The notes: a model not told the origin generated them from the sequence alone. DNA of 64,000 bases from Escherichia coli (GCF_003018255.1 NZ_CP027440.1); one strand, 5' to 3'. Shown: positions 43,919 to 50,870, counted from the first letter of the stretch. Made by a program: numbers and translations.

Positions 43919-44078
43919 TTACTCCGGAAAAACGTACACGCACATGTATACCTCTCCAGCGTAACTGAGAATAGTTCCAGTGAACACCTGTTAGCTAAAA
44001 TAAATTCTGATTTGAGATTAATCTCCGAAAAATCATGAAATTAAATGCGAAATTTCAACTAACAGGCGTGAGTTCAAT

Positions 44079-44390
44079 TTAAAGGCATTTAAATTCAATC
44101 ACATAAAACTGTGTCTGGTCGGGATAGATGTCGGCAATGACCTTTTTCAGTTCAGTCAGGGTCATATTTTCCTGCTTTGCATGTTTTTCCGTCAGCGTAT
44201 CCAGCGTTACGGTTGAGGTTGCGGTGACTTCAATCGTGCAAAAATAACTGTCATCTTCAAACCGTCCGACACGAAGCACATCACCCGTTTTGAAGTGCGA
44301 TTCAGACTCGTCGCGGATGGTGATGGTTTTACGCCCAGCCAGAATGTCATCCTGGAAACGTTGAAAAAAAGTGATGTCGTTTGGCTGCAT
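44079..44390 (-). CDS. yqfB: ASCH-domain protein
   Basis: 103 aa. Confidence 0.85.
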
Positions 44391-44407: not shown

Positions 44408-45868
<1,461 letters not shown>

Positions 45869-45877
45869 TTAGCCGAT

Positions 45878-45912
45878 GTGCCTGATGTGCTCCGCTCATC
45901 AGGCCTGGCACT
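45878..45912. repeat. REP-like palindromic element downstream of bglA
   Basis: TGCCTGATGtgctccgctCATCAGGCCTGGCA. Confidence 0.5.
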
Positions 45913-46032
45913 CTTTTAATATATTGAGCTCGCAATATTTTATATTACGCCTCAGTCGAAACACACAAAGCGCACTTTATTAACAAGCTAAAAGGCGCCG
46001 AAGCGCCTTTAGAAAATAGTCGAATCAGTGAA

Positions 46033-48906
46033 TTACTGGTATTCGCTAATCGGTACGCAGGAGCAGAACAGGTTACGGTCGCCGTAAACATCATCCAGAC
46101 GTTTCACTGTCGGCCAGTATTTGTCTGCCACGCCTGCCGGGAATACCGCAACTTCACGGCTGTACGGATGCGCCCACTCGGCGACCAGTTCGCTCTGAAT
46201 GTGCGGCGCGTTCACCAGCGGGTTATCTTCCAGCGGCCAGACACCGGCTTTCACCTGGTTAATTTCTGCGCGGATAGCCAGCATCGCGTCGATAAAGCGA
46301 TCCAGTTCCACTTTGCTTTCGGATTCGGTCGGTTCAACCATCAGCGTACCCGCCACCGGGAATGACATGGTCGGCGCGTGGAAACCGTAGTCGATCAGAC
46401 GCTTGGCAATATCCAGTTCGCTGATGCCGGTTTCTTCTTTCAGCGGACGAATATCAAGAATACATTCGTGCGCCACGCGACCGTCGCGACCGGTATACAG
46501 CACCGGGAAAGCATCCTGCAGGCGGCTGGCAATATAGTTGGCGTTAAGAATTGCCACCTGGCTTGCTTTTTTCAGCCCTTCTGCGCCCATCATGCGGATG
46601 TACATCCAGCTGATTGGCAGGATAGAGGCACTACCGAACGGTGCCGCAGAAACCGCGCCCTGACGGGTTAACATGCCTTCGATTTGCACCACGCTATGAC
46701 CCGGTACAAACGGTGCCAAATGCGCTTTCACACCGATCGGTCCCATACCTGGGCCGCCGCCACCGTGCGGAATGCAGAAAGTTTTATGCAGGTTAAGGTG
46801 CGAGACGTCCGCGCCAATAAAGCCCGGTGAGGTGATGCCGACCTGGGCGTTCATGTTCGCGCCATCAAGGTAAACCTGACCGCCGAACTGATGCACGACT
46901 TCACACACTTCACGGATCGTTTCTTCGTACACGCCGTGGGTGGAAGGATAAGTCACCATGATGCAGGAGAGATTATCGCCCGCCTGTTCCGCTTTCGCGC
47001 GCAGGTCAGTCAGATCGATGTTGCCATTTTTATCACATGCCACAACCACCACCTGCATTCCTGCCATATGTGCAGAAGCGGGGTTAGTTCCGTGCGCAGA
47101 AGCCGGGATCAGGCAGATATCGCGATGCCCTTCGTTGCGGCTTTCATGATAATGACGAATCGCCAGCAGGCCCGCATATTCGCCCTGTGCACCAGAGTTC
47201 GGCTGCATACAAACGGCGTCGTAACCGGTCAGTTTCACCAGCCAGTCAGCCAACTGCGCAATCATCTGCTGATAACCTTCTGCCTGTTCCGGCGGGCAGA
47301 ACGGGTGCAGTTCGGCAAATTCCGGCCAGGTGATGGGGATCATCTCGGCGGCGGCGTTCAGTTTCATGGTGCAGGAACCCAGCGGGATCATCGCCTGATT
47401 CAGCGCCAGATCTTTACGCTCCAGCGAGTGCATATAGCGCATCATTTCGGTTTCGCTGTGGTAGCGATTAAACACCGGATGGGTGAGGATTTCGTCGTCG
47501 CGCAACATTGCAGGCTGAATAGAGCGGCTATCGTGAGCCACGTCTTTGTCCAGCGTGTCGATGTCCAGTCCGTGGTTATCGCCCAGCAGTACGCTGAAAA
47601 GCTGCATCACGTTTTCACGCGTGGTGGTTTCATCAAGGGTGATCCCAACCGCGTTCAGAATATCGCTACGCAGGTTGATTTCAGCCGCTTCGGCACGCGC
47701 CAGTACGCCCGCTTTGTCGGCCACTTCCACACACAAAGTGTCGAAATAGTGCGCATGACGCAGTTTCAGACCTTTTTGTTGCAGGCCCGCCGCCAGGATA
47801 TCGGTCAGACGGTGGATGCGGTTAGCGATACGTTTCAGGCCCACCGGGCCGTGATAAACGGCATACAGGCTGGCGATGTTTGCCAGCAGTACCTGGGAAG
47901 TACAAATGTTGGAGTTCGCTTTCTCACGGCGAATATGTTGCTCGCGAGTCTGCATCGCCATGCGCAGAGCGGTATTGCCAGCTGCATCTTTCGATACACC
48001 GATAATACGGCCCGGCATTGAGCGTTTGTATTCATCTTTCGCCGCAAAGAATGCTGCGTGTGGGCCACCGTAGCCCATCGGCACACCGAAGCGTTGCGCC
48101 GAACCAAAGACAATATCCGCGCCCTGTTTACCAGGCGCAGTTAACAGCACCAGCGCCATAATATCGGCGGCGACACTGACCACAATTTTGCGTGATTTCA
48201 GTTCGCTGATGAGCGCAGTGTAGTCGTGGATTTCACCGGTTGTGCCAACCTGCTGTAACAGCACGCCGAAGACGTCCTGATGGTCGAGCACTTTTTGCGC
48301 GTCATCGACAATCACTTCAAAACCAAAGGTTTCGGCACGAGTACGTACCACATCCAACGTTTGCGGATGGACGTCAGAAGCAACAAAGAAGCGGTTGGCA
48401 TTTTTCAGTTTGCTGACGCGTTTAGCCATCGCCATTGCTTCGGCGGCAGCGGTGGCCTCGTCCAGAAGAGAAGCAGAGGCCATATCCAGTCCAGTCAAAT
48501 CCAGCGTTACCTGCTGGAAGTTGAGCAGTGCTTCAAGGCGGCCCTGGGAGACTTCAGGTTGATACGGAGTATACGCGGTATACCAGCCCGGATTTTCCAG
48601 CATGTTACGCAGAATAACCGGCGGTAGCTGCACGGCGGTGTAACCCATGCCGATGTAAGACGTGAAGCGTTTATTGCGACTGGCAATAGCCTTGAGTTCC
48701 GCCAGCGCGGCGTATTCGGTCGCCGGTGCGCCAACCTGCGGCGGGGTCGCAAGCTGAATATCTTTCGGCACAATCTGGCCGGTCAGCGCGTTTAACGATT
48801 GTGCGCCAACGGCATTCAGCATTTCTTGCTGTTGCGCGGCGTCCGGTCCGATATGGCGTTCAATAAAAGCGCCGCTGTTTTCAAGCTGGCTTAACGTCTG
48901 TGTCAT
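46033..48906 (-). CDS. gcvP: glycine dehydrogenase (decarboxylating), glycine cleavage P protein
   Basis: Track ORF extends to 48990; start trimmed to MTQTLSQLE (957 aa). Confidence 0.9.
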
Positions 48907-49024
48907 GAGCGATGGTTCCTGAAACGTGCAGTGAATTGTGAACCTCTCTCCTTGCGAAGAGAGTGAGGGTGAGGCGTAAAAGTTCCTCACCCTGATCCTC
49001 TCCCGCAGAAGAGGAATAAAGCCG

Positions 49025-49414
49025 TTACTCGTCTTCTAACAATGCTTCGTATGCGATCGCATCCAGCAGTGATTCCAGTTCGCTTTCATCGCTGGCTTTG
49101 ATTTTAAAGATCCAGCCACCTGCATACGGTTCGCTGTTCACCAGTTCCGGGGAATCGCTCAGTGCGTCGTTTACCGCCACGATTTCACCGCTTACTGGCG
49201 CATAAATGTCTGACGCCGCTTTTACTGACTCAGCAACCGCGCAGTCATCGCCCGCGCTAACCGTTGCGCCTACTTCCGGCAGGTCAACAAACACCATATC
49301 GCCTAACAGCTCCTGAGCGTGTTCGGTGATGCCAACGGTGTAAGTGCCGTCGGCTTCTTTACGCAGCCATTCGTGTTCTTTGCTGTATTTCAGTTCTGCT
49401 GGTACGTTGCTCAT
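49025..49414 (-). CDS. gcvH: glycine cleavage system H protein (lipoyl carrier)
   Basis: 129 aa from [10 protein letters not shown]; lipoyl-lysine region ESVKAASD. Confidence 0.95.
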
Positions 49415-49437
49415 CAATCAATCTCCAAAAAAGTAAA

Positions 49438-50532
49438 TCACGCGACGGCTTTGCCGTTACGCACAAAAACAGGTTTCGTCACTTTAACCGGCATTTCACG
49501 GTTGCGAATTTGCACAATCGCTGTTTCACCAATACCTTCCGGCACGCGCGCCAGCGCAATGCTGTAACCCAGCGTCGGGGAGAAAGTCCCGCTGGTGATA
49601 ATGCCTTCATGCTGGTTGCCCTGCGCATCAGTAAAACGTACCGGCAGTTCATTACGCAGCACGCCTTTTTCGGTCATCACCAGACCAACCAGTTTTTCTG
49701 TGCCATGCTCACGCTGCACTTCCAGGGCTTCACGACCGATGAAGTCACGATCTGCCGGTTCCCAGGCGATAGTCCAGCCCATATTGGCGGCTAAAGGAGA
49801 GATGGTTTCGTCCATCTCCTGACTATAAAGATTCATACCCGCTTCCAGACGCAGCGTGTCACGCGCGCCCAGGCCGCATGGCTTAACGCCCGCTTCCACC
49901 AGCGCGCGCCAGAAATCCGCCGCTTTTTCATTGGGCAGCGCAATTTCATAGCCCGCTTCACCGGTATAACCAGTGGTGGCAATAAACAGATCGCCCGCCT
50001 GCACGCCAAAGAACGGTTTCATCCCTTCCACCGCCTGACGCTGAGCGTCATTAAACAGTGTGGCAGCTTTTGCCTGCGCATTCGGCCCTTGCACGGCAAT
50101 CATGGAAAGGTCATCACGAACGGTAATTTCGATGCCGAAAGGTTCAGCGTGTTGGGTAATCCAGGAGAGGTCTTTTTCGCGGGTGGCGGAGTTTACAACG
50201 AGGCGGAAGAAATCTTCAGTAAAGTAGTAGACGATGAGGTCATCTATCACACCGCCAGAGGCATTCAACATCCCCGAGTAAAGGGCTTTGCCGCTTTTGG
50301 TGAGCTTCGCCACATCGTTCGCCAGCAGATAACGCAGAAACTCCCGGGTGCGGCTGCCGCGAAGATCGACGATGGTCATATGTGACACATCAAACATTCC
50401 GGCATCGGTACGTACCGCATGATGTTCGTCGATTTGCGAACCGTAATGCAGCGGCATCATCCAGCCGTGGAAATCTACCATGCGAGCGCCGCAAAGCGTG
50501 TGTTGTTCGTACAAAGGAGTCTGTTGTGCCAT
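49438..50532 (-). CDS. gcvT: aminomethyltransferase, glycine cleavage T protein
   Basis: 364 aa. Confidence 0.95.
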
Positions 50533-50870
50533 CTTGTCCTCATTGAATAAGCGGGGCTGACAACTTTTTCATGGTGAAATTATCACCACGAAACCCAGCA
50601 TCGGAGCCACTCCCGGTCCCCAACGCAATCGTTCTCTTTTGCCTGAACTTACCACCGAAACAGACTGTTAACCATAAGGTAAAATTGATCATCACATTAG
50701 CTTATGGTTAAAAAGCGCCAAAATCGCAACAGAATAAAAAACCAAAAAATGAACAAATCTCTATATAAAGATAAATAGATGAGAAAGTTAATTTGAATAA
50801 GACAACATTAAGAACTAAAAAAATGTCAAAAAACACTAAATAAAAAATTCGTAACATTAGAAAATATAAT
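50533..50870 (-). promoter_or_regulatory. gcvTHP promoter / upstream regulatory region (AT-rich)
   Basis: Strongly AT-rich tract with A-runs upstream of gcvT; known to carry GcvA, Lrp, PurR and CRP sites (individual sites not mapped here). Confidence 0.6.

Follow-up and report, generated by a model that had tools for sequence, protein, structure and literature searches.

The spacer between gcvH and gcvP in the Escherichia coli DNA that we analysed (a 64 kb stretch, called the window below) contains a long imperfect inverted repeat which, judged by its architecture and its position, appears to be an eroded pair of BoxC elements. We give a probability of roughly 0.7 to the reading that the central hairpin of this eroded pair acts as a barrier to 3'-to-5' exonucleases and thereby stabilises the gcvT-gcvH mRNA. 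The function of the central hairpin is already known from the literature, and the feature is ordinary and largely explained: the repeat is no new regulatory RNA and belongs to a known type of intra-operon mRNA-protective hairpin, which has been catalogued at this exact site. The hairpin as the cause of the stabilisation, the identity of the nucleases and a protein output that follows the mRNA levels are the parts of this reading that we infer. The initial annotation of this DNA had placed the repeat in the spacer that separates gcvH from gcvP inside the gcvTHP operon, which the gene coordinates and the annotated genes confirm; the gcv genes lie on the minus strand, and the transcript is the reverse complement of the sequence quoted there. 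The operon is laid out as follows.

49438-50532, minus strand: gcvT.
49025-49414, minus strand: gcvH coding sequence, the upstream, stabilised gene, with its stop codon TAA at 49025-49027.
48943-49015, minus strand: the whole inverted repeat, a putative eroded tail-to-tail BoxC (PIT/TMECO) pair, predicted to form three hairpins on the gcvTHP mRNA.
48907-48942, minus strand: the non-repeat part of the spacer, with the gcvP Shine-Dalgarno sequence AGGA at 48917-48920 and a small predicted hairpin at 48916-48935.
46033-48906, minus strand: gcvP coding sequence, the downstream, less stable gene, starting with the ATG at 48906 and not with the GTG at 48990.
45990-46010, minus strand: intrinsic terminator after gcvP, AAAGGCGC-TTCG-GCGCCTTTT, with its primary Term-seq 3' end at MG1655 3046123.

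A repeat search delimited two arms at 48946-48974 and 48985-49013, each 29 nt long and 72% complementary, with a gap of 10 nt between them, and when run over the whole window it found this to be the longest inverted repeat of such type in the 64 kb. Just two further inverted repeats of this kind were found in the window, both of them short AT-rich overlapping palindromes; the second-longest, at 44071-44110, has 24-nt arms that are 71% complementary. The gcvH-gcvP repeat lies inside the 118-nt spacer (48907-49024), and its end is 37 nt 5' of the gcvP ATG. Folded as the mRNA strand, the 73-nt RNA reached -40.3 kcal/mol versus -23.6 +/- 3.1 kcal/mol for 200 dinucleotide shuffles, none of which folded as well (z = -5.4), and the 118-nt spacer folded at full length gave z = -4.4. 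The inverted repeat is not due to chance. Its minimum-energy RNA fold consists of three adjacent hairpins (49015-48996, 48993-48966 and 48963-48944) and not of one 30-bp hairpin; in the RNA ensemble the central hairpin had a pair probability of 0.98, and the outer arms were split about 40:55 between local hairpins and long-range pairing. Thus, the arms of about 30 nt around a 10-nt loop that the initial annotation had described do exist as a repeat, but the single long hairpin that it drew from them is populated alongside a second conformer. The three hairpins and the RNA 3' end discussed below are located as follows.

48996-49015, minus strand: hairpin 1, UCCUCUUC-UGCG-GGAGAGGA, 8 bp with one U.G pair, -11.8 kcal/mol.
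48966-48993, minus strand: hairpin 2, the central one, AGGGUGAGG, a 10-nt loop and CCUCACCCU, 9 bp, G+C-rich, -15.1 kcal/mol.
48944-48963, minus strand: hairpin 3, CUCUCUUC-GCAA-GGAGAGAG, 8 bp with one U.G pair, -10.6 kcal/mol.
48962, minus strand: 3' end of the gcvTH RNA, at spacer nucleotide 63, equal to MG1655 3049097 and BW25113 3042456, 4 nt past hairpin 2.

Published RNA 3' ends from two strains fall on a single nucleotide of this structure. Term-seq of MG1655 mapped a 3' end at 3049097 (-) under each of the three growth conditions (Adams et al. 2021, PMC7815308, supplementary file 1); it scored 412219 and 171112, whereas the gcvP terminator's own end scored 36065 and thus stands about 11-fold lower (PMC7815308). 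In BW25113 the same nucleotide was found, and the central hairpin is listed as a protective 3' structure of -15.7 kcal/mol (Dar and Sorek 2018, PMC5927463, S6 Table); its position in the window, 48962, was obtained in the present analysis by converting the published MG1655 and BW25113 coordinates through the annotation and an alignment of the spacers. An RNA that ends at this nucleotide retains hairpins 1 and 2 (-28.3 kcal/mol) and loses hairpin 3, and hairpins 1 and 3 are direct repeats of one another. In addition, gcvH/gcvP was scored as a differentially decaying pair in which the upstream gene is stabilised, with a half-life ratio of 2.21 +/- 0.02, which was 1.42 in the Moffitt dataset, and with a steady-state mRNA ratio of 5.03 +/- 1.33 (PMC5927463, S3 Table). 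The proposal of the initial annotation that the repeat could be an mRNA processing or stability element, to be checked by RNA end mapping, is therefore borne out by 3' ends 4 nt past the central hairpin in two studies and by a gcvH mRNA that is both longer-lived and more abundant. These measured consequences attach to the 9-bp central hairpin.

In the mechanism that we propose, an endonuclease would cut the gcvTHP mRNA downstream, and the ensuing backward degradation would stall 4 nt past the central hairpin; an abundant, longer-lived gcvT-gcvH RNA would be left behind while the gcvP segment would decay faster, and the operon would in consequence yield more T and H message than P message. The REP hairpin of malE-malF, on which Newbury et al. 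reportedly worked in 1987, is said to be the paradigm for such protection. The gcvH-gcvP site shares with the malE-malF type a stable intra-operon hairpin that has no U-tract, a 3' end just downstream of it, and an upstream gene that is longer-lived and more abundant. The two differ in that the malEFG hairpins are REP elements, whereas those of gcvH-gcvP would come from BoxC, and in that causality was shown by mutation for malE-malF, whereas the support at gcvH-gcvP is genome-wide and correlative; a search of the literature found no mutational study of the gcvH-gcvP hairpin. Dar and Sorek take their hairpins, like that of malE-malF, to block 3'-5' exonucleases once an endonuclease has cut the mRNA, and the gcvH-gcvP hairpin is itself among the 26 of their S6 Table, although most of these structures lie inside the downstream coding sequence and the gcvH-gcvP one is intergenic (PMC5927463).

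The same 3' end could arise by partial termination, with polymerase stopping at or after the hairpins in a non-canonical intrinsic or Rho-dependent manner, so that the spacer would be an attenuator and the gcvP level would be set at transcription. Some termination may contribute, because the mRNA ratio of 5.0 exceeds the half-life ratio of 2.2, and all the more that of 1.42 in the independent Moffitt data; moreover, in many other Enterobacterales and in Shewanella a hairpin with a T-run comes immediately after gcvH, and the Dickeya site has been read as an internal terminator of about 71% efficiency (PMC9239193). Against this, the three stems in E. coli are followed 3' by AUCAGG, CACUCU and GUUCAC, and since there is no T-run after any of them and the terminator scan was negative throughout 48907-49024, we rejected an intrinsic terminator. 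The listing of Adams et al. holds no Rho-termination region near the spacer (PMC7815308), and protective hairpins without U-tracts showed, as a class, no significant bicyclomycin effect or Rho dependence in the study of Dar and Sorek, who had left out operons for which Rho-dependent or intrinsic termination between the genes was known (PMC5927463). The Maher laboratory, too, saw no promoter, terminator or other activity for BoxC/PIT, according to Holder et al. 2015 (PMC4666352). Taken together, we regard termination as an unlikely explanation of the difference between the genes, which could also act together with the protection from decay that we favour. Two more Term-seq 3' ends in the operon are internal to open reading frames and marked as not Rho-dependent, namely MG1655 3048758 (-), 283 nt into gcvP, and MG1655 3050602 (-), 65 nt into gcvT (PMC7815308). 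The SMRT-Cappable-seq paper and its supplements make no mention of gcv.

The initial annotation also offered translational control of gcvP, which would mean that the repeat, especially in its long-hairpin form, alters access to the gcvP ribosome-binding site or uncouples gcvP from gcvH translation. The short distance from the end of the repeat to the gcvP ATG, the switching of the mRNA ensemble between two conformers and the fold of the full spacer, in which RNAalifold predicted the small hairpin at 48916-48935 (UUCACUG / CAGGAA) to pair part of the Shine-Dalgarno sequence, would all accord with such a role. However, the repeat includes neither the Shine-Dalgarno sequence nor the 36 nt that precede the gcvP ATG, and these 36 nt are almost invariant in the Enterobacteriaceae alignment, as opposed to the variable part of the spacer directly after gcvH; they are kept in most loci whichever repeat lies 5' of them, also where the repeat is much shorter or is replaced by a REP-like or ERIC-like sequence or by a single hairpin. 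In addition, no pairing between the repeat and the ribosome-binding site was predicted, and the effect is seen on mRNA level and half-life. Control of gcvP translation by the repeat is thus unsupported, and we consider it very improbable. The region of the small hairpin is without variation, so that covariation is uninformative for it; 48907-48942 could form a separate translational signal for gcvP.

The start of gcvP was judged from annotation and from the homologous loci. In RefSeq the start codon of gcvP is the ATG that corresponds to window position 48906, and in most of the 80 species loci that we compared the spacer ends in an ATG at the homologous position, with unrelated repeats, differing by genus, 5' of it. 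The extension of gcvP through the spacer up to GTG 48990, already suspected in the initial annotation to be spurious, was accordingly rejected. An internal gcvP promoter was rejected as well, because a promoter scan found no sigma-70-like site in 45900-50800.

The initial annotation missed the family to which the repeat belongs. The BoxC family itself has been known since the 1990s, and Hoyne and Maher are said to have dealt with the BoxC/PIT element in 2000. Earlier work by Bergler in 1992 and by Bachellier in the 1990s is cited in Holder et al. 2015, who give the BoxC core as CCCTCNCCC-N3-6-GGGNGAGGG-N3-GGGNGAGGG and count 23 copies in MG1655, five as close inverted pairs, tail-to-tail being a described arrangement (PMC4666352). 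When the window was searched by nhmmer with a profile of the 23 TMECO copies, the two best matches were the two halves of the repeat, on opposite strands and tail to tail.

48985-49014, minus strand: left BoxC-like half, tCCTCTTC-TGC-GGGAGAGGa-TCA-GGGTGAGGa, nhmmer E = 0.012.
48943-48974, plus strand: right BoxC-like half, CCTCTCTCC-TTGCG-AAGAGAG-TGA-GGGTGAGG, nhmmer E = 4.1, more eroded than the left half.

The left half has two mismatches to GGGNGAGGGNNNGGGNGAGGG in its 21-nt purine part and more C to T changes in the pyrimidine block, and hairpin 1 derives from the BoxC blocks CCCTCTCCC / GGGAGAGGG. Against the strict BoxC consensus both halves fall short, the plus-strand half more so than the minus-strand half, but the order of the blocks and their tail-to-tail inverted pairing, with the GGGTGAGG blocks facing each other, are those of BoxC. 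Aligned end to end and collinearly with the canonical pair at hrpB-mrcB, the repeat scored 39 versus 13 +/- 2.2 for shuffled sequences. Furthermore, Enterobacter cloacae, E. wuhouensis, E. asburiae and Pseudocitrobacter have textbook BoxC pairs (nhmmer E from 1e-8 to 6e-10) at this very site. These pairs follow immediately on the gcvH stop, align collinearly with the spacer of E. coli and have their flanks in common with it; BoxC variants at gcvH-gcvP were also found in Siccibacter and others. We therefore take the repeat to be, as far as such comparisons tell, an eroded tail-to-tail BoxC pair that is a relative of the family by descent and not a canonical member, an assignment that rests on architecture, on a weak profile score and, most strongly, on positional correspondence. 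It is possible that BoxC elements were inserted separately at this site in different genera.

Shared with BoxC are, in detail, the three-block layout (pyrimidine block, short loop, GGGAGAGG-type block, 3-nt loop, GGGTGAGG-type block), the intergenic location, and the tail-to-tail pairing seen at 5 MG1655 sites. By contrast, the gcv copy carries terminal G to A and internal C to T changes, its halves are 10 nt apart versus 16-27 nt in canonical tail-to-tail pairs, and it folds with about -40 kcal/mol versus -61 to -65 kcal/mol for the canonical pairs at the gcvH-gcvP site of other genera. BoxC DNA is described as folding in vitro into an intrastrand triplex of the purine-motif type; this potential is probably reduced in the gcv copy, as each of its two purine blocks has a terminal G to A change that would cost it triplets there. 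The gcvH-gcvP repeat is absent from the 23 published copies, a list that does contain the canonical pair downstream of gcvP, and a motif search of the window that allowed up to 3 mismatches gave 1 match versus 0.37 expected, which is not significant alone. When the 118-nt spacer and the 73-nt element were compared by BLAST with 5426 E. coli genomes, to E = 10, only the orthologous locus was returned; BoxC is otherwise present in a genome as multiple, highly similar copies, but with one locus returned per genome the gcv copy is too diverged to be linked by sequence search alone, and family membership needed the profile and cross-species synteny. The BoxC origin of the repeat is apparently unreported: a literature search found no paper that links the spacer to BoxC, although older BoxC lists may already include the locus.

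Other identities gave no match. With Rfam 15 at a permissive threshold all hits were below the gathering score, the best being whalefall-1 with 19.8 bits versus 37. REP/BIME elements are likewise dispersed extragenic palindromes that form mRNA hairpins, and hairpins of REP type fill the gcvH-gcvP spacer in Salmonella and Citrobacter, but REP/BIME elements have no sequence similarity to the E. coli gcv element; motifs of the GCCGGATG / CATCCGGC type are present in Citrobacter and Lelliottia spacers at this junction and absent from that of E. coli, and this identity was rejected.

A BoxC ancestry by itself would also suit a reading at the level of DNA, in which a decaying selfish element is tolerated in a permissive spacer, or acts there as a triplex, a cruciform or a recombination hot spot, and the RNA 3' end is incidental, as it would be with any stable hairpin. 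BoxC elements are dispersed repeats to which no function had been assigned, and Holder et al. 2015 found no regulatory role for them, only a link to local genome variability (PMC4666352); in line with this, the G-runs of the gcvH-gcvP copy are eroded, one E. coli genome has an apparent palindrome-mediated duplication of 52 nt at the element, an indel that removes ygfF ends next to the site of the canonical BoxC pair of MG1655, and Erwinia does without any hairpin at gcvH-gcvP. The pattern of variation argues the other way. The spacer was found in 5425 of the 5426 complete E. coli genomes, and in all sampled haplotypes the stems are unchanged and the loops vary: the window strain and MG1655 have 4 differences, all in loops, and in four other E. 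coli haplotypes the changes, a 1-nt indel among them, are confined to the loops of hairpins 2 and 3, the loop of hairpin 2 being the sole hypervariable part among E. coli strains. Across genera, the three-hairpin pairing is kept in 91.8% of cells (10 sequences from at least 6 genera), versus 55-74% for slid partners; compensatory change is seen in five pairs, and where one side alone has changed the result is mostly U.G, so the erosion has preserved the pairing. Hairpin 1 is paired in 97.5% of cells, with 2 compensatory pairs, and hairpin 3 in 89.9%, with 3. The RNA folding and the conservation across enterics that the initial annotation had named as checks of its structure thus both came out in favour of pairing. 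Also against the selfish reading, structurally equivalent but unrelated hairpins stand at the junction in most genera, and Salmonella has the same expression pattern with a different element. On this evidence we think it quite unlikely that the repeat is a mere passenger, and prefer the protective role of the central hairpin. In eroded copies the mRNA strand gains 3-6 kcal/mol on folding over its antisense counterpart; the difference is reversed in one Escherichia locus (L007) and nil in canonical copies, and it is too weak and inconsistent across species for use as a sign of RNA-level selection.

In one of the 5426 genomes, E. coli VTB96775v (NZ_CP178634.1; locus L086, 326-495), the gcvH-gcvP spacer is 170 nt long. 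Its 52 additional nucleotides repeat hairpins 3 and 2 in inverted orientation and look like the product of a palindrome-mediated duplication inside the element.

The junction was compared in 80 gcvH loci, one genome per species (L006-L085), from which the gcvH-gcvP spacers were extracted. BoxC pairs or single BoxC hairpins were found in Escherichia, Enterobacter, Pseudocitrobacter, Siccibacter, Lelliottia, Phytobacter, Cedecea and Pluralibacter, REP-like hairpins in Citrobacter and others, ERIC-like sequences in Kluyvera and some Citrobacter, and a hairpin with a T-run in Photorhabdus, Providencia, Serratia, Yersinia, Dickeya and Shewanella. A hairpin at gcvH-gcvP is not universally required, as the spacer of Erwinia (L054, L059, L083), with only 23 nt, has none. 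Salmonella has a REP-type hairpin at the junction, a Term-seq 3' end there and a gcvH/gcvP ratio of 2.64-fold (PMC5927463), and in Dickeya a 3' end after gcvH gives rise to gcvTH and gcvTHP isoforms, with about 71% termination (PMC9239193). The internal terminator of Dickeya and other Enterobacterales has its position, the gcvTH and gcvTHP isoforms and the lower gcvP in common with the E. coli site; the Dickeya-type terminator has a T-run, whereas the E. coli hairpins have none and the published reading for E. coli is protection from decay. Because both Salmonella and Dickeya show a 3' end after gcvH and lower gcvP, the outcome is kept while the element that provides the hairpin changes. A Providencia metagenome-assembled genome (L073) has up to 445 nt of tandem ERIC-like copies at gcvH-gcvP.

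RNA 3' ends were also seen at other BoxC copies. In a sample of the sites in the table of Adams et al., at least three other copies had a 3' end 3-4 nt past CCCTCTCCC/GGGAGAGGG hairpins, at MG1655 847200 (-), 3781065 (+) and 3959467 (-), and the primary 3' end of lldD is included among these three; an ERIC-associated 3' end was listed at MG1655 127845 (+) (PMC7815308). Our literature search found no statement that BoxC copies carry RNA 3' ends. We put forward, tentatively and at somewhat less than even odds, that BoxC elements in general are barriers to 3' exonucleases as REP elements are, and that gcvH-gcvP is a selected hairpin slot which unrelated elements refill and in which the pairing of the mRNA strand is kept despite erosion of the consensus. 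The slot may have been filled by BoxC in Escherichia and Enterobacter, by REP in Salmonella and Citrobacter, by ERIC-like sequences in Kluyvera and by terminators in Dickeya, Yersinia and Photorhabdus. With the gcv copy and at least three others carrying 3' ends just past their hairpins, BoxC repeats gain a plausible role at the RNA level, and a junction at which unrelated repeat families and terminators interchange, while gcvTH message continues to exceed gcvP message in E. coli, Salmonella and Dickeya, is a natural example in which to study the recruitment of dispersed repeats for setting the stoichiometry of an operon.

At the other end of gcvP, a comparison of window 45860-46032 with MG1655 3045300-3046124 (L001, 1-825) showed that the strain lacks both ygfF and the canonical BoxC pair (TMECO 10+11) that MG1655 has between gcvP and bglA. 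Homology to MG1655 starts at window position 45990, about 38 nt from the MG1655 site of the TMECO 10+11 pair, and an indel boundary adjoining a BoxC pair agrees with the reported variability near BoxC repeats. Another strain with an identical gcvH-gcvP spacer is annotated with gcvP followed directly by bglA. A short REP-like palindrome (GGCCTGATGAGCGGAGCACATCAGGC) was seen by eye on the minus strand at 45905-45945, in the interval that separates the gcvP terminator from the end of bglA, a convergent gene.
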